From Candidatus Nanopusillus sp. (GTDB lineage Archaea > Nanobdellota > Nanobdellia > Nanobdellales > Nanobdellaceae), in contig JAPWTZ010000008.1 of assembly GCA_028275775.1 (NCBI GenBank), positions 1 through 21,759 on the forward strand: a DNA stretch of 21,759 nucleotides, read 5' to 3'. The notes below the pieces were generated by a model. That model ran no database searches. It saw only the letters and a list, made by a program, of their open reading frames with translations, and was not told the DNA's origin. Of this stretch, positions 6,062 to 21,578 are shown piece by piece. The translations under genes were made by a program, and so were the position numbers. Position 1 is the first letter of the stretch. Each line of letters begins with the position of its first letter.

Positions 6062-6895
6062 TTATAAACTTCTATTATCCAATAATTTTAAAGATTTAAT
6101 TAATTCATTCGGATTTTTTAAATGAGTTTCTACTATTTTTTGATTATAATTTACTCTAAAACCAATTTTAAAGTAATATATCTTTTTGTTGTCTATATAT
6201 ATAGTTCCTTCTTCTTTTAAAATAAAATTATAAGCATTGTATTTATATGCATCTCTCATAATTCTATTAAGATTATGTCTTATTATTCTCTTTACACCAT
6301 ATAAATTTCCTATATCTTCAGAATAAGGATAAATTGCTCCATAAAGGTTAATTCTTTCAATCTTTCCAATTAAGTTAAATTCGATTGTTCTTTTTAATAG
6401 ATATTGATATATTATTAATTGACCTGAAATCTCCCTTATTATATGGAGAATTTTTTTAATAAGATCTTCATCCCCTTTTGATTGAGATTTAGTAAGATCA
6501 ACAGATTTTACTTCATAAATATTTGCTATAGTTTTCATCTTACCTCCAAAATTTAAGCCATCAGGTTCCCCAACTATTAATACCGGATATCCGTTATAGT
6601 ATTCAATTGATATTAGATAATATTTTAGAGATTTTGTTATTGATTTCACCATATCTTCAAAATATTTTGGAATTCTTTCATCTATTTTACCTTGTCTGAT
6701 ATCTCCAGATAATTCTTTTATAGGCAGAGTTGCAGCTATTGTAAGTATATTTCCATATTTCCCTTTTATATCTTCTAAAACATCCCTCAATCTCTTTAGA
6801 TATGAAATATCATAATTAGGATTATTATTATTTATTTTTGTATTTATTCTTTCTATTAAAGTATCCAATGTTGTCACTCCGTAATGAGTATACAT
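6062..6895 (-). CDS. hypothetical protein (277 aa) with a possible PD-(D/E)xK nuclease-like motif
   Basis: ATG start. It sits 23 nt upstream of the next same-strand ORF (14 nt if that ORF uses its TTG start at 6047), so it looks operonic. I recognise no family. VLIVGEPD(112)...IANIYE(128)VK(130)S resembles the hhhD...hhhExK core. Confidence 0.55.
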   Translation of the reverse strand: MYTHYGVTTLDTLIERINTKINNNNPNYDISYLKRLRDVLEDIKGKYGNILTIAATLPIKELSGDIRQGKIDERIPKYFEDMVKSITKSLKYYLISIEYYNGYPVLIVGEPDGLNFGGKMKTIANIYEVKSVDLTKSQSKGDEDLIKKILHIIREISGQLIIYQYLLKRTIEFNLIGKIERINLYGAIYPYSEDIGNLYGVKRIIRHNLNRIMRDAYKYNAYNFILKEEGTIYIDNKKIYYFKIGFRVNYNQKIVETHLKNPNELIKSLKLLDNRSL

Positions 6896-6925
6896 AATAA
6901 GTAATTAATATAATTCATTTATAAA

Positions 6926-7009
6926 CGCCGCGGGTGGGATTTGAACCCACGCCCCCTTTCGGGGAATGGATTAGCAATCCATCCCCTTGGGCCGCTCGGG
7001 CACCGCGGC
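6926..7009 (-). tRNA. tRNA-Ser (anticodon GCU)
   Basis: The reverse complement is GCCGCGG TG CCC GAGCGGCCCAA GGG G ATGGA TTGCTAA TCCAT TCCCCGAAAGGGGGC GTGGG TTCAAAT CCCAC CCGCGGC G. It has a 7-bp acceptor stem, a 5-bp anticodon stem with a 7-nt loop carrying GCT at positions 34-36, a long variable arm (CCCC-GAAA-GGGG), a canonical T arm and discriminator G. No CCA is encoded. Confidence 0.92.
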
Positions 7010-7030
7010 ATATTAAATTTTTAAAAATTA

Positions 7031-10074: not shown

Positions 10075-10962
10075 TTAAGAACTAATATACTTCCATGATA
10101 AAATTATACCAACTATAGAGAGAAATGTAGCAAATACTGTGAGATATATAAAGTCTATTGTTAGATTTGTTTGTATACCGAGTAACATTCCCCTTATTAT
10201 TGCATTTGAATAAGTTAATGGATTTATCTCAGCAATTGGTTTTAACCAGGAAGGCATTGAATTTACAGGATAAAATGCATTGCTAGTAAATAGTAATGGT
10301 AAATTTAATAAATTCATGACTGCCATTTGAGACTGCCATGAACTCGCCCTAATAGCTACCATTAAGAAAAGAGAAGAAAGCCCAAAAGACATCAAGAATA
10401 GAGCAGCATAAGCTCCAAGAAAGTCAAAGATATTTATTCCAGGATAAAAAGACATTCCCAATAATACTGCCACAATTAGAACAATGGTAGCTTGTACTAA
10501 AGATCTAATTACTGAAGATAATACTTTACTTATAATTATGTTACTCCTTGATACTGGAGTCGTTAAAAGCCTATCCAATACTCCTAACCTTCTATCCCAC
10601 ACCATTGACATACCACTTTGCATTGAAGTAAATAATGTTATAAAAGACAACATTCCAGCAGCTAGGTAAGAAAAATAATCTGTTGTTCCAAAAGTTTGTT
10701 TTAATATTTCTTGCCCGATTTTATCAATTATATTTTTCGGTATATTCAATCCAGGTATTGAAAGAGTTGTACCTGAGAAAAGAGCCTGTAAGTTCATTGC
10801 TTTCCCAAAGAGTGCTATCCAAAATATTGGTTGTATAATAGATAATAAAAGGATTACTGCAGACTTGTACCATTTCTTTAGCTCTCTGTTTGTTAAAGTC
10901 CACAAGCCATGGAGAGGAGATCTATCTATATATTCTTCTTTCTTTTTTATTTCCGTAACCAT
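10075..10962 (-). CDS. ABC-2 type transporter permease
   Basis: 295 aa with about 6 hydrophobic helices. It begins 1 nt after the stop of the upstream ABC ATPase gene on the same strand. Composition and length are typical of DrrB/ABC-2 permeases. Confidence 0.8.
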   Translation of the reverse strand: MVTEIKKKEEYIDRSPLHGLWTLTNRELKKWYKSAVILLLSIIQPIFWIALFGKAMNLQALFSGTTLSIPGLNIPKNIIDKIGQEILKQTFGTTDYFSYLAAGMLSFITLFTSMQSGMSMVWDRRLGVLDRLLTTPVSRSNIIISKVLSSVIRSLVQATIVLIVAVLLGMSFYPGINIFDFLGAYAALFLMSFGLSSLFLMVAIRASSWQSQMAVMNLLNLPLLFTSNAFYPVNSMPSWLKPIAEINPLTYSNAIIRGMLLGIQTNLTIDFIYLTVFATFLSIVGIILSWKYISS

Positions 10963-10963
10963 C

Positions 10964-11959
10964 TTATCCTCTAGTTCTTCTTAAAGTTCTTCTCAATGCA
11001 AATACTTCTTTTGAATCAGCCTCTTCATCTCTCATTTTTCTACCTGTATATTCCATATAAACCTCATCCATTGTAGGCTCCGTTATTGACATTTTTAATA
11101 CTTTTACCCCACTCTTTATTAATTTTTCAAGAATTTTGGGGGCCATTTCTTCTCCATCCTTTACTTTTATCCTTAGCATATTATCAACTTTTCTTATATC
11201 AATTATACCATCAAGATTCTGTAATAATTTCATAGTTTCATCATCATTTGAAGTATTTAAAGTAATTACATCGCCTCCTACACTTTCTTTTAATTCTTTA
11301 GGAGATCCTATAGCAAGTATCTTACCATGATCAATTATAGCTATTCTATCAGCATAAAGATCGGCTTCCTCTAAGTAATGAGTAGTAACAAATATTGTCA
11401 TACCATATTCTTTCTTAAGCTTCATAATATAGTTCCAAATTGCACTTCTAGTTTGGGCATCCAAACCTATAGTTGGTTCATCTAAGAATAAAATCTTTGG
11501 TCTACTAATTAAAGACATTGCTATTTCTAGTCTCCTCCTCATTCCTCCGCTATATGTTTGTACTTTTCTATTCATTGCTTGAGTTAATTCAACCATATCT
11601 AATAATTCCTTAGCTCTTTCTTTAGCCACATCCTTCTTTATACCATAAAGACCTGCCATTAACATCATATTTTCCCATCCTGTCAAATCTTCATCAGCAG
11701 TGAACTCTTGAGGTACTACTCCAATAGAGTTCCTTACCTTCGCTGGTTCTTTAATTATATCATAACCATTAACTATAGCAGTTCCTTCAGTAGGTTTTAA
11801 TACTGTAGTTAACATTTTTATAGTGGTTGATTTTCCAGCACCATTAGGTCCTAGAAAACCAAATATTTCTCCTTCTTTAACTTCAAAATTTATATGATCA
11901 ACTGCTACAAATTTGCCAAAAGCTTTAGTAAGATTTATTGCCTTTATTGCCTCACTCAT
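10964..11959 (-). CDS. ABC transporter ATP-binding protein (DrrA/ABC-2 exporter type)
   Basis: Walker A is GPNGAGKST, Q-loop VVPQE, signature YSGGMRRRL, Walker B ILFLDEPT and H-loop TTHYLEEA. A C-terminal regulatory-like extension follows. Confidence 0.9.
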   Translation of the reverse strand: MSEAIKAINLTKAFGKFVAVDHINFEVKEGEIFGFLGPNGAGKSTTIKMLTTVLKPTEGTAIVNGYDIIKEPAKVRNSIGVVPQEFTADEDLTGWENMMLMAGLYGIKKDVAKERAKELLDMVELTQAMNRKVQTYSGGMRRRLEIAMSLISRPKILFLDEPTIGLDAQTRSAIWNYIMKLKKEYGMTIFVTTHYLEEADLYADRIAIIDHGKILAIGSPKELKESVGGDVITLNTSNDDETMKLLQNLDGIIDIRKVDNMLRIKVKDGEEMAPKILEKLIKSGVKVLKMSITEPTMDEVYMEYTGRKMRDEEADSKEVFALRRTLRRTRG

Positions 11960-12179
11960 TTTTTATTATCTTCTCAATTTTCCTTACGGCCTTTTCTATT
12001 TTTTCTCCAATATTCAATATTAGTTCTACATATAATATTATACTGCTTTGGATTCGTTTTTTCATGAAATTTATTATATTTTCATTATCAAATATTCTCT
12101 CTTTATAATTTACCATTTGAACATAATAGTAATAAGAAATATTATCTAGATACAATTTTCTTTCCAATCTATATTGCAT
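11952..12179 (-). CDS. small hypothetical ORF (75 aa) overlapping the ABC ATPase start by 8 nt
   Basis: ATG start. It overlaps the ABC ATPase gene within ...AAAAATGAGTGA.... It is much more AT-rich than the ABC genes. No motif is recognised, so coding status is uncertain. Confidence 0.35.
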   Translation of the reverse strand: MQYRLERKLYLDNISYYYYVQMVNYKERIFDNENIINFMKKRIQSSIILYVELILNIGEKIEKAVRKIEKIIKNE

Positions 12180-12355
12180 AGTTATATTTATTTTTTAATA
12201 TCTATAAAAAGATTTCTATAAGAGGATAATCAAAAAGAAAGAATATAGAATTTATCTTTATAAGACTTATGATCTAAAAAACCATACACATAAAGACTTT
12301 AGAAAAACAAAAGTATAACAGCTAAAGATAATTTATCATTCAAAGATTTTATGTT

Positions 12356-12374
12356 TAACAATTGGATATTGTTA
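12356..12374. repeat. perfect 7-bp inverted repeat TAACAAT-n5-ATTGTTA upstream of the 12431 promoter
   Basis: Read directly from the sequence. It lies about 25-45 nt upstream of the TATA-like box. Confidence 0.4.
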
Positions 12375-12398
12375 CAAAGCCAATACAAATTCTAAAAG

Positions 12399-12407
12399 TT
12401 TAAAATA
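12399..12407 (+). promoter_or_regulatory. TATA-like box (tttaaaata) about 28 nt upstream of the 12431 ATG
   Basis: Its position fits an archaeal TATA box driving a leaderless or short-leader mRNA. In DNA this AT-rich such matches are weak evidence. Confidence 0.3.
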
Positions 12408-12430
12408 CTTTTTTATATAGATTTATTATA

Positions 12431-13282
12431 ATGACTACTAAGTTAGAAAAAATAATTGAATTATTAAATTCAAAGTTACAAAAAGGAATAATTAAAAAGG
12501 AAGATTTTGAAATTTTAAAAGAACTTATAATTCAATATGCAATCCGATATGAAGATTATATAGAAAACGTACACTATTTTGCTATAGGACTAGTTAATTT
12601 GATAGAAATTGGATATGATGAAAAAGATATATCTACAATATTAACAGATATTTCAAATTTGGGAATAAAGGAAATTGACAAAGCACTATTTGAAGTTTCT
12701 ATCTATATTTATGAAAGATATGATGAAGAATTTAGAAAATACTTTGAAGAAAGATCAAAATCTATAAAAAAGATAATCGAATCCTCTCCAAATATTGATA
12801 ATATATTGTATAAATTAGAAGATAAAATAAAAGTTCTCTTCAATGATAATGATAAAACATATATCAAGATAGAAAATTCTATAGAAAACACTAAAAAATG
12901 CGATATACCCCCATTGAGTTATATATATAGTATAATACAAAATTGGCAAAATGGTGACTATATAGAAAAAATAGAAAATATTAGAGAACAAATTTCTTGT
13001 ACAATAAAAAATTTAGAACATATAAAAAGCAATCTAGAAAATATTTTAAAAGATTTAAGGGGTTCTAGATATATAAAAGACATACAAAATATAAAAAGAG
13101 AATTAGATATTTATTATAATGGATTATCAAATATTATAAAAGAACTAGATACTTATAAACAATCTTATATAGAATTTAAGAAAGAATATTTGCCAAAATT
13201 ATTATCCGAAGGTTTAGATTATATAAAAGGGTATATAAATATTAATTCAAATAAAGAAAACATAAATATAAGCCTTACATAG
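12431..13282 (+). CDS. hypothetical all-helical/coiled-coil-like protein (283 aa)
   Basis: Long ORF with an ATG start and Lys/Glu/Ile/Asn-rich heptad-like stretches. There is no TM helix, signal peptide or catalytic motif that I recognise. Confidence 0.6.
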   Translation: MTTKLEKIIELLNSKLQKGIIKKEDFEILKELIIQYAIRYEDYIENVHYFAIGLVNLIEIGYDEKDISTILTDISNLGIKEIDKALFEVSIYIYERYDEEFRKYFEERSKSIKKIIESSPNIDNILYKLEDKIKVLFNDNDKTYIKIENSIENTKKCDIPPLSYIYSIIQNWQNGDYIEKIENIREQISCTIKNLEHIKSNLENILKDLRGSRYIKDIQNIKRELDIYYNGLSNIIKELDTYKQSYIEFKKEYLPKLLSEGLDYIKGYININSNKENINISLT

Positions 13283-13613
13283 AAAAACATTTAATCTTTA
13301 TTTAGTATAGCTCATATAATTTATATTTTAAACCTAATTGAAGTGATTGTTCTAGATGAAACATAGCTAAATTATATATTTTCTTTCATTTAAATTTCTT
13401 TCTCCTTCTTTAAAGAAATCTATTGAATTATTTTTAAGAAAATCCGTATAAATCTTTATTTTATAAATTTTTAATTCTTCTTTTAATTACCTGAAGCATT
13501 TACTATTGATGAAACATATTTAAAACTAGTCCAAATTAGTAATGACTTTTATATAAAATATTGCTAGATTAAAATCATTAAAGAACGTATAAGTTTTAAA
13601 TTTATTTTAAAAA

Positions 13614-13624
13614 ATATAAAAATA
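13614..13624 (+). promoter_or_regulatory. TATA-like box (atataaaaata) about 27 nt upstream of the 13646 ATG
   Basis: Same spacing logic as the box upstream of 12431. Weak evidence in an AT-rich spacer. Confidence 0.3.
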
Positions 13625-13645
13625 CTACCATAAATCAATGATATA

Positions 13646-14272
13646 ATGACAATACTAGAAATAGAACCAAAAATAAAGAACAATCTATTAGATGCGTTTA
13701 GAGATTTAGAAAAAACATTAGATAATATATTAATGAACACGGATAAATTAGCAAAAGAATATTATAATACAAATATAAATCTAGAAAAAATAAGATTAAA
13801 TGCAGAAATACCTTCCGATATCGGTGAATATATCATTGAAAAATACTTCCTAGAATTTATTGACAAAGAAAATAATATTATTGCAACATATAAAAAAATA
13901 GAAATATGGATAAGAGGTGATTATTCTCCATTTCAATCGGAGAAAGATTTTAAATTCGATAGAAAATATTCACATTTATATCCTCCTCCAAAAGAATATT
14001 TAATTAATTTAGATAGCTACTTAGATAATATAGCAACAAATGGAAGAAGAATAGTCAAACACATATCATCATTAACAGAAACAGAAAATTATAGGAATAA
14101 GAAAGTTATTGAAGGTCATAAGATTAAAAAAGTTACTACGAATATTAAAGCAATATCTTGTATAGATAAAAATGCAGGTCCTCTCAAAATTGTTCCTATT
14201 ATGGATAATAAAGGAATAATTAACGGAGTAATATATCACAATAATAGAACAGAAATTACAATTTACTTATAG
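13646..14272 (+). CDS. hypothetical protein (208 aa): helical N-terminal half, beta-rich C-terminal half
   Basis: ATG start with its own upstream A/T box. No family is recognised. Confidence 0.55.
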   Translation: MTILEIEPKIKNNLLDAFRDLEKTLDNILMNTDKLAKEYYNTNINLEKIRLNAEIPSDIGEYIIEKYFLEFIDKENNIIATYKKIEIWIRGDYSPFQSEKDFKFDRKYSHLYPPPKEYLINLDSYLDNIATNGRRIVKHISSLTETENYRNKKVIEGHKIKKVTTNIKAISCIDKNAGPLKIVPIMDNKGIINGVIYHNNRTEITIYL

Positions 14273-14351
14273 AAAATATGACAGTTTTATTTTATTAAAC
14301 TAAATAATGATAGTGATTTAATAATAAAAAATTTTTAAGAGAATGTTTAAG

Positions 14352-14361
14352 TATTTAAAAG
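14352..14361 (+). promoter_or_regulatory. TATA-like box (tatttaaaag) about 30 nt upstream of the 14386 ATG
   Basis: Spacing-based only. Confidence 0.3.
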
Positions 14362-14385
14362 ATTTACTACTAATAAATAGTAAAT

Positions 14386-15372
14386 ATGAATAAGCTATAC
14401 GAAGAATATAAATGGTCAGAATTGATTAAAAATGGAGTAGAAAGATATGGATATAATATAAGAGAAAATTCAAATTCATATTTAGCTAAGTTCTTAGAAA
14501 TTGCTAATAATGATGAAAAAAGAAATCCAAGAGTATATGTAATTGATCGTTCTCTAATAAGAAAAATTATAGAATGTGCTATAACTGAAGAAAGTAATAT
14601 ACAAGATCAACAAGCTCAATTAGAATACTGCATTAATAAATATGTTCCTGAATTACCTATAGATGTTAAAAACACTATAAATGGAAGGGTTATTTCTAGG
14701 GAAGATATACCACAAAGGGATTTTTTAAATAACATATTAAAAAAAGGAGCAAATTTGGATAAAATTATAGATCTATATACACTAAACATAGCTACAGGGA
14801 ATGGATCCGTTCCAAATATATCAAATATTCCAACAATAATATTAATAAATGATGATTTATCTTCTCAATATGGAGTTCTAGCTCCAACAGCTATACATGA
14901 ATTTATACATTTAGCAAATTTAGACAGTCCTAGGTTTCCTGGCTATAAAGATTTGTGGTATATGAAATCTAACTATATTATTACTATTCCTAATAGACTA
15001 TATGAGAAAAATATAAACTTATATAAGATAATCAATGAACATGTAAAACCTTATAGTCATCTTTATAGAAAATATGAAAATATAGAAATCAAAATTGATG
15101 AATTTATAACAGAATTAACAACAATACGTATATTAGAAAATGCAAATATGGAAGATTTATATCTAAACAGAAAAAAATTTATAGAAGAAGTGCTTAATCA
15201 AATTATAGGAAAGAAAAAAGAAGTAGGGATTAGTAAAATTCCTAGAGAAGATTATTTAATTTCTTATCTAACAGCATATGAACTATTAGAAAAAAGAGAA
15301 ATATCAAAAAATATTTTTGAAACTATAGATGAAGTATTAGAATCATATATTGAAGATAAGTTGAAAAGTTAA
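14386..15372 (+). CDS. hypothetical cytoplasmic HExxH (zincin-like) protein (328 aa)
   Basis: HEFIH lies at aa 171-175 (nt 14896-14910). It is preceded by a hydrophobic strand (PTIILINDD) and by GVLAPTAI, the usual strand-plus-helix context of zincin active sites. There is no signal peptide or TM helix. Confidence 0.6.
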   Translation: MNKLYEEYKWSELIKNGVERYGYNIRENSNSYLAKFLEIANNDEKRNPRVYVIDRSLIRKIIECAITEESNIQDQQAQLEYCINKYVPELPIDVKNTINGRVISREDIPQRDFLNNILKKGANLDKIIDLYTLNIATGNGSVPNISNIPTIILINDDLSSQYGVLAPTAIHEFIHLANLDSPRFPGYKDLWYMKSNYIITIPNRLYEKNINLYKIINEHVKPYSHLYRKYENIEIKIDEFITELTTIRILENANMEDLYLNRKKFIEEVLNQIIGKKKEVGISKIPREDYLISYLTAYELLEKREISKNIFETIDEVLESYIEDKLKS

Positions 15373-15634
15373 GAAATTTTTATAAAATTTTTAATTAAAT
15401 TATGGCAATTAAAAATTAAGAAAGCAAGGAAAATCATTTTATATTCATTCGATGATAAATATAAAAATGATTCTTTCTTTTTATGTATAAAACTATATAA
15501 ATATTTAAAAGTAATTTTAGATATAACTATATAGCTTTAGATTTTAATATAAATGTTATTACTGATTTATATCTTTTAGTTAATTTGAATACAATCTTTC
15601 ATTAAAAAATATAATAAAATAATTATATAGTTAG

Positions 15635-17065
15635 CTATCTACTCATCTTTTCTAATTTTTTCTTAACATTAATAAGAATCCACTTATAATATGTACTTTC
15701 ATGTGAAAAATAATCACACCATGCTCCAATTTTTCCAATATTATCTTTAATACGGAATAATCTATATGCAAGAATCGTCGATAAATAACTTGATTTATCA
15801 AATTTATTTATTTCTTCAATAGCATCCAATATTTTTATAATTAATCTTCTTTTCTTTCCATATTTTTTAACTATATGGTCCAAAAGTTTTATCAGATAAT
15901 CTAAAGTTAAACTATATTTACTTATTATGCCTTTATATATTTCTTCCAATATTTTAGAATCTGTTATAAGTTCATAAGGATCTCTTTTATTTAATTCATT
16001 TTCTAAATATTCTAAATCTTTTTCAGAATTTATTAATCTATATAATCTAAAAGAAACAAATTGAGGATAATATTTTAGTATATTTGGATATTTTGAAAAA
16101 AGATCTTTTCTCATTAAATTTATAACATTATATAATCTATCATAATCTATAAAATTATACTTTTTGTTATTTGTATGAATTATTATATATCTAACAATTC
16201 TTCCTCCTTTATTTATTAGCTGATTAAATATTTCTAATTTTATTTCTTGATTTATTTTTTCATTAAGATATATATTTTCAAAGTACTTTGTTAGAATAAA
16301 TAAGAAATCTTTTGCCTTTATTTTTTCGAAATTTATATTATCTATAAGATCTATAATCGACGGATCTTTAATAATTTGATTTAAAAATAATTTTAAATCT
16401 TCTTCATTTTGTACTTTATAATATAAACCATTGGAAGAAAATATATTTAATAATTTTGAGAATTTTTCCTTTGGAATCTTATCTTTTAACTTTATTATAA
16501 GATACGGTCTTCCACTAAAACTTCCAATAACTTTTATTATAAAGTCTTTTGCTATCTTAATATCTATGTCTTTATCAACGATTAGATTTAAACTCTCAGA
16601 TAAAGCTGTATACATAGTAATTTTTAGTTTATATTTTTCATTTATTAGATATTCCAATATTTCTAATAAAACATTTATTCTTTCATTATCCAAATTTTCT
16701 ATGTTTTTTCCAATAGCTTCTATTATAAATGTTGTAGATATTTGAAATACATCTTCATATTTTATTAACATACCTATCAAATCTTCCAAAACTTTTTCAT
16801 CAAATCTTTCTTTAATTAAATAAATATAAGTTAGGAATTCTTTTGGAATATGTAAAATGGTTTTTTCCTTAACTAACCATTGAAGATATTCAATCAACTT
16901 ATCATTATTAATTATTTCTTCAACAGCTTTTTCACCTTTTAATTTTATTAAGTAAGATATATTTTCTTGAACAATTTCTTTCATTTTTTCTATATCTAAA
17001 TTGTCATAAATTTCTAGATATTCAGTTTTTGTTATTTTACTTAAAAATTCTTCACAATATTCCAT
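15635..17065 (-). CDS. hypothetical large all-alpha protein (476 aa)
   Basis: Long ORF with an ATG start and helical-repeat-like composition. No catalytic motif is recognised. It is convergent with 14386-15372 and divergent from 17523-18374. Confidence 0.6.
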   Translation of the reverse strand: MEYCEEFLSKITKTEYLEIYDNLDIEKMKEIVQENISYLIKLKGEKAVEEIINNDKLIEYLQWLVKEKTILHIPKEFLTYIYLIKERFDEKVLEDLIGMLIKYEDVFQISTTFIIEAIGKNIENLDNERINVLLEILEYLINEKYKLKITMYTALSESLNLIVDKDIDIKIAKDFIIKVIGSFSGRPYLIIKLKDKIPKEKFSKLLNIFSSNGLYYKVQNEEDLKLFLNQIIKDPSIIDLIDNINFEKIKAKDFLFILTKYFENIYLNEKINQEIKLEIFNQLINKGGRIVRYIIIHTNNKKYNFIDYDRLYNVINLMRKDLFSKYPNILKYYPQFVSFRLYRLINSEKDLEYLENELNKRDPYELITDSKILEEIYKGIISKYSLTLDYLIKLLDHIVKKYGKKRRLIIKILDAIEEINKFDKSSYLSTILAYRLFRIKDNIGKIGAWCDYFSHESTYYKWILINVKKKLEKMSR

Positions 17066-17221
17066 AAATATAATATTTAATCTTTAAATTTTAGCCTTTT
17101 TATTATGTATTCATCAAGAATTTTAAGATAGAGGATTTACAACCCGACCAATAAATAATATTTCATTTGCCCTTAAGTTTATATTATAAATATAAATGAC
17201 CTATTGTTATTCTATTATTGA

Positions 17222-17413
17222 ATAACAGGATTATATCGTGAAGCTATAATAATTGTAAACCAAGATGAATACTTAATTAAAGCATTTAAAATCGCTAACA
17301 GGAATAAAATAACTATTTATGACTCCTTATTCATTGCATTAGCTAAATTAGAGAACCTTGAGTTAGTAACATCTGATATAAAACAATACGAAATTGCAAA
17401 AATGAAGGAGTAA
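17222..17413 (+). pseudogene. 5'-truncated PIN-domain (VapC-like) toxin relic
   Basis: The frame reads ITGLYREAIIIVNQDEYLIKAFKIANRNKITIYDSLFIALAKLENLELVTSDIKQYEIAKMKE-stop. ..ITIYDSLFIALA....L.LVTSD is the typical C-terminal half of PIN/VapC, carrying the third and fourth acidic positions. The frame is closed by TGA at 17219-17221. There is no start codon, and the N-terminal ~70 aa with the first Asp are missing. Confidence 0.6.
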
Positions 17414-17522
17414 ATGCTCAGTTGATATAAGGAACATCAGATACAACTAAAATTTTACTACATTAATTAAAATTATAATTTTATTACATTCATGAAATTT
17501 AGACATAAAATAATGAAAATTT

Positions 17523-18374
17523 ATGAAAATTTATTATTATTATCATTTAATAATGCCAGAAGATAAATACGATTTAGATCTTTTTATAAAAAATAGTTTT
17601 GATGAAACTATAGACTATCTTAAAAAGAATAATATACAAATTGGAAGACTATCATTGAGAACTTTTGAATCTTTGGAAGAATTTCAACAAATATATAAAA
17701 CAAATGAGAAATTTAAGTTCGCAAGATATGTTTCAGAAAAAAGAGAAATACAAATTATAAAAAATGGACTAAAAGAAGTTATAAATAGCAATATTAACAA
17801 TCCAAATAAAATTTTTATTGGTAATCTATTTACTATAAAACATAATGGAATACTATGGCCAGTATATAAAAATGATGATGATATAGAAAATATTATAGCA
17901 AAAACTATTACAGATTCGATAGTAACTCATGAAATTGGGCATCATATAGTTGGTTACGATGACTGGAGAGCTTCTGCATTTGAATATCTAGTATATTTCT
18001 ATAAAAATGAATTATACAAATATCCTGAAGTTTATGAAATTATGAAAAAGAATATAGAAATATGCAATGAATATATAAAGAAAAAAGATCCGTCATCACC
18101 TTATTCTCTAGGATCACCTCTAGCACCTTATGCCTTAGGATCATGTTTTGCAAATGATCTTATATATATTTATGAGAATATTTCAAATAAGGATAAAGAA
18201 TCACCGAAAATAAATATAAAAGATACAATAGAAAAGCTTAAATGCGTCTCCGAAGAATGGGGTATAGATATAACTAAGATACTTAATACATTGCTTAAAA
18301 CTAATGAAAGTTATACTGATATAAACAAAATAATTTATACATTAATTAAAACCCTGATGTTATTATATCAATAA
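17523..18374 (+). CDS. hypothetical cytoplasmic HExxH...E (gluzincin-like) protein (283 aa)
   Basis: HEIGHH lies at aa 136-141 (nt 17928-17945), with Glu154 18 residues after the first His (RASAFEY). There is no signal peptide or TM helix. The true start could also be Met11 (MPEDKY, nt 17553). Confidence 0.6.
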   Translation: MKIYYYYHLIMPEDKYDLDLFIKNSFDETIDYLKKNNIQIGRLSLRTFESLEEFQQIYKTNEKFKFARYVSEKREIQIIKNGLKEVINSNINNPNKIFIGNLFTIKHNGILWPVYKNDDDIENIIAKTITDSIVTHEIGHHIVGYDDWRASAFEYLVYFYKNELYKYPEVYEIMKKNIEICNEYIKKKDPSSPYSLGSPLAPYALGSCFANDLIYIYENISNKDKESPKINIKDTIEKLKCVSEEWGIDITKILNTLLKTNESYTDINKIIYTLIKTLMLLYQ

Positions 18375-18448
18375 TATTTAGACAAAATAAAATCATGAAA
18401 TAAATTTTCTAGTGTATTAAATGTATTCTATTAAAACTATAGTAAAAA

Positions 18449-20086
18449 TCATCTAACAAGCACACGAGACCAGGGAGAAGGTAATCCTTGCTTTTTACTA
18501 TATGCTGCATTTAACAGTGCAACAAATAATGGATGCGGATGTAATGGCCTACTTCTAAACTCTGGATGAAATTGAGTAGCTACAAAGAAATAATGGTTTG
18601 GTAGTTCTATCATTTCTACTCTTGGAACATCAGATCTCCAAGCTGAGAAAACAAGACCCTTTTCAGTTAGTATATTAAAGAACTTAGGATTTACTTCATA
18701 CCTATGCCTATGCCTCTCTACTATTTCGGTTGTTCCATAGATTGCATGAGCTATTGTACCTTCAACAATATTAATCTTCCTATTACCAAGTATCATTGTA
18801 CCACCAAGCTCCTTAATATCTTTTTCTTCTGGTGTTATATCAACAACTGGATATGGTGTGTTTGGATCAACTTCTGTTGTATGAGCACCTTTGAGATTAG
18901 CGACATTTCTTGCAAACTCTACTATAGCTAATTGCATTCCATAGCATATTCCAAGAAATGGTATATTATTCTCACGAACATATCTAATAGCCTCTATTTT
19001 ACCTTCAACCCCTCTAGCTCCAAAACCTGGTAATACAATAACAGCATCAGCATTATCAAGTTCTTTAATCTTTGAGTGATCTTTTTCAATTTCCTCAGTA
19101 TCGCACCAAATAATATTTGGCTTAATCTTTAACTTAGCAGCAGCATGTTTTATAGCCTCAACAATACTTATGTAAGAATCATGAAGTTTCACATACTTAC
19201 CACACATGTATATATTAACTTCATCTTTACTATCCTCAAGAGAGTTTACAAAATTTATCCAATCATCTAGTTTAGGTTCTTTAGGTTCTAATCCTAATTT
19301 TGTTACTATATATTTTCCAAGACCTTGTTCTTCTAAAATGAGTGGCACTTTATAAATTGTATCTACATCAGGTGATGTAAATACAGCATTAACTGGTACA
19401 TTTGTAAATAAAGATATTTTCCTTTTAGTTGATTCATCAAGCAACTTTGGCGCCCTTGCAATTATTATATCTGGTTGAATACCAACTCTTCTAAGCTCAG
19501 CAACACTATGCTGCAATGGTTTTGTTTTAAGTTCACCTGTAGTTGATAGCAAAGGAACTAAAGCAACATGAACAAATAATACATCATTGGGCATCTCAAG
19601 CTTCATTTGTCTTGCAGCTTCAAGGAATGGTAATCCTTCATAATCTCCAACAGTACCTCCAATCTCAATTAAAATTATATCTGGTTTTTCACGTTTCGTT
19701 ACTAACATTATTCTTCTCTTTATTTCTTCAGTAACATGAGGTATTAATTGAACTGTCTGACCTAAGTACTCTCCTTTACGCTCCCTTCGAATTACTTTAT
19801 AATAAACTTGACCACTAGTTATATTATGATATTTAGGAATTTCAACATCAAGAAATCTTTCATAATGCCCTAAATCTAGATCTGTTTCACCACCATCAAA
19901 AGTTACAAACACTTCACCATGCTGGAATGGATTCATTGTACCAGCATCCACATTTAGATATGGATCTATTTTAATTGCTGTTACATTATAACCTCGAGCT
20001 TGAAGTATTTTTCCAATAGAAGATGTTGTTATACCCTTTCCCAATCCAGACAACACACCTCCCGTAATAAATATATACTTAGTCAT
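18449..20086 (-). CDS. pyrG: CTP synthase (glutamine-hydrolysing)
   Basis: 545 aa. The N-terminus is [16 protein letters not shown]...[38 protein letters not shown]. The class I glutaminase domain has GICYGMQ (nucleophile Cys), HRHRYEVN and HPEF. Confidence 0.93.
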
Positions 20087-20663
20087 TATAATTATTTAAT
20101 TAACTTTTTAATAAGTTTTGACTACTGGACTTTTAACATTTTTTTAACATACTTTCATGCTTAAATTAATCTTAAATCAAACATAAAATTTAACATTATA
20201 TACGTTCATAACATATTATTCCATCTAATAAGCTTCTAATTATTGATAGAAGAATAACGAGCCGTCCTCCAAAAGATATTGATGCTCATAATTTAAAGAA
20301 ATTATAGACACTAAGTTTATTTTAGATAATAGAAATAAAAAAGGAATTGGAGAAACTTAATATTTATATGATTTATAATCTGCTTGAATATTCAAAAAAA
20401 TAGAATTTTTTAACTAAAATTTATATCTTTTTATAAATATTTTTAAATTAAAAAACATTATTTTAATGCTAGGCCTTTTTGTCTAATATTATTTTAATGT
20501 TATGGATATGCCGTTCCATATCTTAAAAATTCCTCCAATCTTTCTTCAGGATGATCACTAATTCTTTCAAGATCTTTGCTATTAGATAAATCAAAGCTAT
20601 CTATCCTAGCATCAAGTACGTTATAAGCTTCTAGTTGTTTATTACTCCAATCATAAGATATGA

Positions 20664-21578
20664 TTATATTTGGATTGGTACTATGGTTCCTCCAATTTCT
20701 TTTAATGTAATAAATGTATAAATGGTTGGAGAATATCTTAATAATTCTTTAGGATCTGCATTCTTCCATAATTTATAATAGAAATCTTTTAATGATGCAT
20801 CTGAATTTCTTAATATCTCATCTAAATTATATTGGTTATATAATAACCAACTTCTAGGTACTCCTACAATTCGAGGACGTGATATATCCACAGCAGCTCT
20901 CCACACTCTGTCATCAATTTTGCTCCTATACTTAGCTGTTATATCATCATCTATCCTTCTAACTTGCTCAAGATAATTATTAATATCATTTGTATCTATA
21001 TTTGCCATCATACTATCTCTTATATTTTTTATAGCATCAATGTTCATCTTCTCAGTGAAATCTGCGGAGAATCTAGCAAACACCCCAGCATATGGAGCTA
21101 TACTCATTTTATTTAGAAGTACCATTTTATAACCTTGTTGATAGTAAGAAGATAATGCTGGTTGTATAAATATTCCATTCTTTTCCAAAATATTTAGAAG
21201 TTTTCCTAAATTTGGCATAGAATCAAGAGATATATAAATAGTTACTTCTTTGGGTTTTAAGAAAGGATCGTCATCACCATATTGATAAACCTTAATTCCG
21301 TCTATCTCCCCATTTTTTAACATTTGTATAAAATCATAGCTCCTTAAAACATTATACATTTCTACTGAAAGTGGAGAATGTATTTTTATTCCAGGCCATG
21401 GAGGTGTATCCTTCTTTCGATGATCGGCATCTTCTGACAAACGTTTGTTTGCCAAAACTAAAAAAATACCGTCTCCTCCCAAATAATCAAGATCATATTT
21501 ACTAGCAAGATTCAAATAGTATTCTCCTAATTGACGAGCTCCTTTTATTTCTTTTCCAAATATATCTTCTAGTCCCAT
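20664..21578 (-). CDS. hypothetical protein (304 aa); the C-terminus may be frameshifted
   Basis: ATG start with a TATA-like atatttaaaaata about 20-32 nt upstream. Amino-acid composition is ordinary and it uses CGN Arg codons. No family is recognised. Confidence 0.65.
   Translation of the reverse strand: MGLEDIFGKEIKGARQLGEYYLNLASKYDLDYLGGDGIFLVLANKRLSEDADHRKKDTPPWPGIKIHSPLSVEMYNVLRSYDFIQMLKNGEIDGIKVYQYGDDDPFLKPKEVTIYISLDSMPNLGKLLNILEKNGIFIQPALSSYYQQGYKMVLLNKMSIAPYAGVFARFSADFTEKMNIDAIKNIRDSMMANIDTNDINNYLEQVRRIDDDITAKYRSKIDDRVWRAAVDISRPRIVGVPRSWLLYNQYNLDEILRNSDASLKDFYYKLWKNADPKELLRYSPTIYTFITLKEIGGTIVPIQI

Follow-up and report, generated by a model that had tools for sequence, protein, structure and literature searches.

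What kind of chromosomal region is formed by five adjacent open reading frames (ORFs) that fall into no recognized family and lie between an ABC exporter operon and the CTP synthase gene pyrG of a nanoarchaeon? The ORFs, termed genes A to E here (Table 1), form an island within a 21,759-nucleotide stretch of contig JAPWTZ010000008.1 of Candidatus Nanopusillus sp., and this whole stretch is referred to below as the window. A preliminary description of the DNA had proposed that the island is a novel conflict or defence module or, alternatively, a decayed integrated element. Homologues of the island proteins bear the names Candidatus Nanopusillus sp., N. acidilobi, Candidatus Nanobsidianus stetteri or ‘Nanoarchaeota archaeon’, and the DNA comes from a nanoarchaeon of the Nanopusillus type (Nanobdellota; Nanoarchaeales; Nanopusillaceae). 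Members of the Nanoarchaeota live as obligate symbionts, their genomes are very small and, to our knowledge, almost nothing has been established about how they deal with hosts, viruses or competing strains. From the comparisons described below, the island is probably one haplotype of a flexible, ‘dark-matter’ chromosomal plasticity zone found in Nanopusillus/Nanobsidianus-type nanoarchaea and containing decayed toxin–antitoxin (TA) cassettes; the five genes would then be neighbours rather than one functional unit, and neither recently acquired nor mobile. Among described categories, the archaeal dark-matter island comes closest, and the locus adds a new example to a known kind of region.

Most of the evidence for this comes from approximately 55 related loci, designated by L and a number, which were collected by exact-protein look-ups, by a scan of GTDB genomes with C and by a scan of metagenomes with D, and in which genes were mapped by tblastn; D was the bait for most of them. 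D, for which no family can be detected, provides a fixed point in the variable region. It is 67–92% identical across loci, stays at the same place near the ABC operon and is intact in most cases (it is split or apparently frameshifted in L058, L059 and L044), and everything around it varies. It adjoins C in all three genome loci that were fetched with C. In 28 loci the sequence spans D as well as the flank on the ABC side, the flanks being 89–98% identical, and the interval between D and that flank ranges from 264–286 bp, when it is empty (L029, L033, L047 and L056), up to 7172 bp. Intact copies of a HEPN toxin gene are present in 20 of these intervals, of its MNT partner in 19, of C in 17, of A in 14 and of B in nine, with a partial B in one more. 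Intermediate intervals hold HEPN-MNT only (four loci), C plus HEPN-MNT (four loci) or progressively fuller versions, and some contain in addition a phosphodiesterase gene, two further small genes or a second copy of C. The gene next to D on the side away from the ABC operon is vapB in six loci, the L7_240/198/220 set in five, E in five, pyrG in four, a serpin gene in four and a vapC relic in two. E itself occurs in 20 of the 26 loci with enough flank, mostly just downstream of vapBC; L052 contains four tandem hits to it, and ten loci also carry a paralogue, E2. All five genes are found together in L017 and L048–L050, and many haplotypes lack from one to four of them. At the junction between the ABC operon and pyrG, the region is thus accessory and variable among close relatives, with A, B, C and E each present or absent independently. 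The suggestion that the five genes constitute a single module is not borne out, because they have separate promoters and assort independently.

Part of the variation can be read from relics in the window. The 5′-truncated PIN toxin gene noticed in the preliminary description is genuine: it is 89% identical to the VapC that is intact in relatives, and DNA alignment to those relatives reveals a deletion of approximately 510 bp that took vapB and the 5′ half of vapC. The vapBC pair is intact in L002, L005 and L009, and in L048–L050 vapC is truncated in a similar way, to 49% of its length. A second relic, of a HEPN toxin gene, had not been described previously and was found in the 363-bp spacer between A and B. 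Here, a deletion of approximately 540 bp took two-thirds of the HEPN gene, from its 3′ end, together with the antitoxin gene MNT; the junction lies near 13308–13317 and has a TCATAT microhomology. The same HEPN relic is present in L023 and L060, and L005/L006 have an intact HEPN-MNT at this site, as do L009–L011 at the equivalent position on the ABC side. The sharing of the HEPN relic, and the occurrence of similarly truncated vapC elsewhere, mean that the deletions are not private to the contig under study.

There is consequently no intact pair of either kind in the window: VapBC is represented by PIN residues 66–131 only, with vapB gone, and HEPN-MNT by HEPN residues 1–46 only, with MNT deleted, although the latter pair is intact in 19–20 of the 28 related intervals. 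The relatives have intact VapBC (PIN) type II and HEPN-MNT type VII pairs at these exact sites, in the canonical overlapping gene arrangement and with the expected Pfam domains (PIN; HEPN with NTP_transf_2), whereas the window keeps only non-functional fragments and has lost both antitoxin genes. A third, probable, relic, of approximately 57 nt, is the 3′ end of a serpin gene, which in relatives encodes 456 amino acids and adjoins D (L002 10034–11404, minus strand; L010 12700–13467). The relics explain the two longest spacers of the island (363 and 457 bp), the latter comprising the vapBC deletion and the serpin relic. The vapBC cassette of L002 lies between the two copies of an 83-nt direct repeat (71% identity), which hints at an insertion of vapBC there; an att site was considered and ruled out, the repeat being the duplicated 3′ end of the serpin gene. 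Decay is also seen in L011, which has an 18-codon relic of A and a frameshifted E, and in the split copies of A, MNT, pyrG and D in other loci.

The variation of C is not limited to its presence or absence. There are at least six allele classes of C, with 38–55% identity between classes, and these do not track the clades of D (defined by ≥ 85% identity with single linkage). Within one D clade, C of class 1 occurs seven times, of class 2 seven times and of class 3 twice, and at least nine loci with sequence on the C side have no C. L060 resembles the window in its HEPN relic, A (83%) and B (84%), but its C is only 43% identical. Between classes, the synonymous divergence (dS) of C is 0.56–0.67, compared with 0.22–0.32 for flanking genes in L009 and L010, from which the C values also come, and the divergence is spread over the whole gene. 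This pattern points to old alleles that have been exchanged by recombination, rather than to recent rapid divergence. A related observation concerns the intergenic DNA between the convergent genes C and D, where positions 15531–15599 (plus strand) are conserved at the peptide level (84–91%) in L005 and L008 and are called there as a 33-amino acid ORF. DNA homology to loci with other classes of C ends approximately 20–30 bp past the stop codon of D, so that this short stretch appears to travel with C of the allele class found in the window.

Ratios of non-synonymous to synonymous divergence (dN/dS), estimated by NG86 against orthologues, are 0.40–0.53 for A, 0.79 for B, 0.37–0.74 for C and 0.37–0.50 for E. 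The corresponding values are 0.19–0.34 for D, 0.05–0.26 for the non-island genes other than the orphan o277, and 0.05–0.16 for the annotated enzymes and a ribosomal protein; the island genes are several-fold faster than their neighbours at non-synonymous sites. Within classes, the ratio for the segment of C around the active site (residues 166–255) is 1.17 and 2.61, from few substitutions. By way of background, the genome-wide ratio of non-synonymous to synonymous polymorphism (pN/pS) of a Yellowstone nanoarchaeal clade was 0.159, and hypothetical proteins were enriched in non-synonymous single-nucleotide polymorphisms in that study (PMC6142677). In several respects, C is like the multi-allelic loci that are under balancing selection, such as those for polymorphic toxins and their immunity proteins or for restriction specificity: several deep allele classes occur at one position, they are incongruent with the phylogeny of the flanks, and there are occasional tandem second copies. 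It differs from them in that its alleles are homologous over their full length, and in having neither a co-varying partner immunity gene nor a secretion signal.

The five ORFs, whose coordinates and spacers are exactly as first described, have no match at or near the cut-off in Pfam, NCBIfam, PHROGs or PADLOC, and PDB sequences gave no match to profiles of A, C, D and E or to B as a single sequence. Neither secretion nor membrane signals were found in A–E; there is no transmembrane-like segment, the highest KD19 value being ≤ 1.17. The source annotations of homologues are ‘hypothetical protein’ only, apart from a paralogue of C (298 amino acids; L002 946–1842, plus strand; cluster of P0204/P0215), which JGI labels ‘nitroreductase’ with no support from any Pfam hit. 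The claim that the island encodes two cytoplasmic HExxH proteins has stood up, in that the motifs of C and E are conserved across their respective families and both proteins are without a transmembrane-like segment; two such motifs were seen in 1578 island residues, compared with 0.019 expected by chance.

The C family is restricted to nanoarchaea, with zero to two copies per locus. A search of 5.8 billion proteins yielded 31 homologues, and a profile search of 1.84 billion representatives gave 12 hits, none of which provided a link to a known family. Two distant hits from GC-richer genomes keep the HExxH motif, one of them lying among genes for an AAA_14 ATPase and a PIN protein; we take these genomes to be nanoarchaeal, on amino acid composition alone. 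H171, E172 and E243 are invariant in all members, and H175 is replaced once, by glutamine (HExxQ). The motif lies in a predicted helix (residues 165–177) and E243 is located on another (237–252). The AlphaFold model of C (pLDDT 78.8, pTM 0.84) has two strands, the HExxH helix, a disordered loop of variable length (179–210) and the helix with E243, in that order, and this predicted arrangement is the gluzincin layout. Foldseek found no significant neighbour of the model, the best E-values (0.38 in PDB and 0.17 in BFVD) not being meaningful. Two of 16 alignment members touch MPTase-PolyVal with an E-value of 0.008. NurA was also considered, being matched below threshold in six of the 16 members (16.8 bits compared with a cut-off of 21), and was judged to be noise.

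The E family is larger, with 246 cluster representatives, all unnamed or nanoarchaeal, and is multi-copy. E probably starts at M11, which is also the first residue of the JGI gene call (273 amino acids) and the point where the majority of homologues begin. A helix (121–143) contains H136, E137 and H140, all three invariant; E154, in the helix 147–161, is invariant in a 23-sequence alignment (A3) and is glutamine in one divergent E2 paralogue. The AlphaFold model (pLDDT 79.6, pTM 0.82) shows the same order of strands, HExxH helix and glutamate helix. Zincins head its Foldseek matches, namely selecase (probability 0.69) and M1 aminopeptidases (TMq 0.33–0.39), all with E-values above 1. C and E were examined as possible paralogues, and this was rejected: hhalign aligned only the 13-column motif, with a probability of 0.9%.

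Thus, both C and E have a conserved helical HExxH and a downstream helical glutamate, the features by which zincins are recognized, and they are two unrelated, undescribed, nanoarchaea-restricted families of zincin-like soluble proteins. Judging from the HExxH…E signature, the two proteins are most likely zinc-binding enzymes that hydrolyse peptide bonds, with E243 of C and E154 of E as the presumed third metal ligands. With the gluzincins (clan MA(E), here the catalytic domain of M1 aminopeptidases and minigluzincins such as M. jannaschii selecase) they have in common that they are soluble, that the HExxH helix comes after β-strands and that a conserved glutamate lies on a following helix, 14 residues past the motif in E and approximately 35–68 in C. 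In contrast to known gluzincins, they have no significant sequence or fold match and both have long helical C-terminal extensions; C has in addition an extra conserved N-terminal region (a VYxxxR strand in which V50 is invariant and Y51 and R55 are nearly so), and one of its relatives has the HExxQ variant. Comparison with ImmA/IrrE (Peptidase_M78, DUF955) gave no Pfam hit for C, E or any alignment member; an adjacent regulator gene recognizable by Pfam was not found, and the genes that neighbour C and E carry no Pfam domain. Neither C nor E is filed under an existing metallopeptidase family. Some relatives have, beside E and E2, a further protein of 255–259 amino acids containing HEFGHLVGLPDP and downstream cysteine residues (L005 11517–12296 and L002 12192–12959, both plus strand), which is absent from the window. 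By its motif it looks like an archaemetzincin, the sole support from Pfam being a sub-threshold hit to Peptidase_M6. The haplotypes that carry it have three or four HExxH genes within approximately 8 kb.

A is a soluble protein of no detectable family, with relatives that are either 85% or approximately 60% identical; it is absent from L009 and L010. An assignment of A to GINS/SLD5 was tried on the basis of a weak single-sequence match to PDB (E-value of 0.03), and was dropped when this faded to 0.5–0.8 with a profile. B is an orphan, the fastest-evolving of the five, and is 38% identical to its positional counterpart in L005–L007.

Is the island foreign? It had been described as compositionally deviant, which is not the case. 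The GC content of the island is 21.2%, compared with 24.5% for the window, and that of the individual island genes (19.9–24.2%) lies inside the range of the other lineage-specific genes of the window (17.9–24.0%; o382 20.7%, o137 17.9%, o305 21.9% and the LeuRS gene 24.0%). The outliers are conserved enzymes, namely those of the ABC operon (32%) and pyrG (34%). The low mean of the island arises mainly because it contains more intergenic DNA, and what was taken for GC-rich ‘flanks’ consists of the most conserved enzymes, the ABC genes and pyrG. The typical GC content, together with the syntenic position and the lack of mobility genes, att repeats and viral or phage homologues, argues that the island is neither foreign nor mobile. 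TATA-like boxes, which were reported before each plus-strand ORF, are not a property of the island. Such hexamers, starting at –32 to –25 relative to the ATG, precede 12 of 15 independently spaced genes throughout the window (0.23 are expected per 15-nt window); that of A starts at –32, and E has no clear box at either candidate start. The position of these boxes implies that transcripts in this organism would be mostly leaderless, as in archaeal transcription generally.

These observations can be put together as follows. A plasticity zone would flank the conserved, clade-specific anchor gene D near the ABC exporter operon, and its content would be genes A, B, C and E, which are restricted to the lineage, evolve fast and have promoters of their own, plus what remains of HEPN-MNT between D and the ABC operon and of VapBC on the opposite side of D, each cassette lost by a deletion of approximately 0.5 kb. 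Co-occurring strains would diverge in content by deletion, tandem duplication and homologous exchange, and C would persist in several old allele classes, exchanged between backgrounds that are otherwise alike. A number of points weigh against this scheme. Many of the metagenome loci come from related samples, so that the haplotype counts are not independent, and dS values from NG86 are unreliable in a genome of 24% GC. C and D are adjacent in most haplotypes and E usually follows vapBC; such pairing could reflect function rather than ancestry, and there may be functional coupling between neighbouring genes. The E-values of the Foldseek matches of the E model are, moreover, all above 1.

If the scheme is correct, even such a small genome, which we take to be only approximately 0.6 Mb, keeps a small and intensely rearranged flexible region, and this region holds two undescribed lineage-restricted zincin-like families, of which that of C is kept as multiple old alleles swapped between strains. 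The locus has in common with the archaeal dark-matter, or flexible, islands described by Makarova, Wolf and Koonin (reviewed in PMC6393860) a run of uncharacterized genes with interspersed TA cassettes, the presence of which varies among close relatives at a fixed and conserved chromosomal site. It differs in being very small (0.26–7 kb), in having no recognizable defence system or integrated element, and in that the essential gene pyrG moves around inside it.

The alternative that survives best is the one proposed at the outset, a conflict or defence island, in which the polymorphic zincins C and E, beside TA cassettes, would act against viruses or competing strains or in a symbiont–host arms race, with frequency-dependent selection maintaining both the alleles and the presence/absence polymorphism. 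We regard it as plausible, though rather unlikely. The content varies at the strain level, TA cassettes (intact in relatives) cluster here, the six or more old allele classes of C are shuffled across backgrounds, E is amplified in tandem, and dN/dS is raised, reaching 1 or more around the active site of C within classes, albeit from small counts. Dark-matter islands have, moreover, been reported to be enriched in conflict genes (PMC6393860). On the other hand, a check with PADLOC produced no hit for A–E or for o75, a small ORF at the edge of the ABC operon, and no significant hit for the extra genes of relatives other than MNT, which matches the candidate family PDC-S09 (L7_240 matches the same candidate marginally, with an E-value of 0.005 and 15 bits). 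Overall dN/dS is below 1, the five proteins lack the signals expected of secreted or membrane proteins, haplotypes with an empty D-to-ABC interval exist, and the genome studied here has lost both TA cassettes. TA genes are in any case abundant in thermophilic archaea. What stands of the conflict proposal is an accessory, variable and fast-evolving region with TA cassettes in relatives; the single module does not stand, none of the known defence families is represented, and by the tests that the preliminary description set for itself the idea of such an island is neither refuted nor established.

Alternatively, the genes might be baggage, weakly constrained leftovers of reductive genome evolution whose variability represents stages of erosion and not function. 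The relics of HEPN, PIN and serpin genes in the window, and the decayed copies of A, E, MNT, pyrG and D elsewhere, would fit with this, as would the nested series formed by the interval contents, from full to empty, and dN/dS values of 0.4–0.8. These values are nevertheless below 1, the frames of C, D and E are intact in dozens of haplotypes, and the catalytic residues are invariant even at 30–45% identity; tandem duplication of C and E and the swapping of alleles are gains, not losses. Pure decay accounts for the relics, but not for the invariant catalytic residues, intact frames or gene gains, and as a full explanation it is unlikely.

A more specific proposal can be made for C, and perhaps also for the amplified E family. 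C might be a polymorphic zinc-protease effector or specificity determinant, the old alleles of which are kept by negative frequency-dependent selection and shuffled by recombination among co-existing Nanopusillus strains; it would act in a strain-specific way on the host crenarchaeon (for example, on host proteins at the cell–cell contact) or against viruses. We consider this speculative and distinctly improbable as matters stand; were it true, an ultra-reduced archaeal symbiont would possess a conflict locus of a new kind. The locus alone reveals no new mechanism, but C, E and the conserved D are concrete, testable candidates for symbiont–host or symbiont–virus interaction, and the locus is a convenient marker for strain-level population genomics of hot-spring nanoarchaea.

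An eroded mobile element or provirus inserted between the ABC operon and pyrG, which the run of orphan genes, TA remnants, long spacers and an IS605-type TnpB a few kilobases away in some relatives might suggest, is highly improbable: the window has no integrase, transposase, capsid gene, att repeat or flanking repeat (as was noted from the start) and no adjacent tRNA gene, the nearest being 5 kb off; the GC content is that of the genome; IMG/VR contigs contain no relatives of C, E, D or A, phage genomes none of C or E by tblastn, and BFVD no fold match to the model of C; the chromosomal position is the same in the fetched GTDB species genomes and in dozens of metagenome contigs; and pyrG is not a stable boundary.

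The features of the island and its flanks are listed in Table 1.

Table 1. Positions of genes and relics in and beside the island (coordinates refer to the window).
Feature	Position	Strand	Remarks
ABC exporter operon (ATPase and permease), left flank	10075..11959	–	90–97% identity; syntenic in relatives
o75	11952..12179	–	Small ORF overlapping the start of the ABC ATPase gene
Gene A	12431..13282	+	283 amino acids
HEPN toxin relic	13308..13447	–	Codons 1–46 of 122; frameshifted at 13376
Gene B	13646..14272	+	208 amino acids
Gene C	14386..15372	+	328 amino acids; HEFIH at 171–175
Gene D	15635..17065	–	476 amino acids
Probable serpin 3′-end relic	17126..17182	–	tblastn E-value of 0.002; blastn 82% over 65 nt
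PIN (VapC) relic, 5′-truncated	17231..17427	+	Matches residues 66–131 of the 131-amino acid VapC intact in relatives; frameshift near end
Gene E	17523..18374	+	283 amino acids; HEIGH at 136–140; start probably M11 at 17553
pyrG (CTP synthase), right flank	18449..20086	–	96.5% identical in L005/L006

The left part of the window (o382, o445, o277, o137, o305, o200, o195 and the ABC operon) is collinear with L008–L011, which are contigs of three GTDB species genomes and one 94-kb metagenome contig, not every gene being present in every locus; in L009, the collinearity extends back to LeuRS and S3Ae. These genes have approximately 84–97% amino acid identity, with the exception of the hypervariable o277. 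Near o195, some haplotypes (L006 638–1447, L018, L054 and L055) have the IS605-type TnpB/OrfB, which is not found in the window and is a possible driver of local rearrangement. At the edge of the ABC operon, o75 varies by haplotype, being 81% identical, 40% identical, a relic or absent, with a dN/dS of 0.77.

On the right, the place of the essential gene pyrG relative to D varies (directly beside D, beyond vapBC-E or beyond the three-gene set; L005, L007, L014–L061), and in L002, L009 and L011 it is missing from the neighbourhood, an unusual mobility for a housekeeping gene. Homology to the relatives ends approximately 35 nt past the start of pyrG, and this edge is another rearrangement breakpoint. 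Beyond pyrG, a 577-bp spacer (20087–20663) and a 304-amino acid orphan, o304 (20664–21578, minus strand), have no counterpart in any fetched locus.

Rfam and ARAGORN found a single RNA element in the window, tRNA-Ser (6925–7010). It is adjoined by the orphan o277 (6062–6895, minus strand; 277 amino acids), which is approximately 50% identical to its positional orthologues in L008–L011, where the genes that flank it are 84–96% identical. Its NG86 dN/dS is approximately 1.0, and o277 is possibly another locus of the type that C represents.

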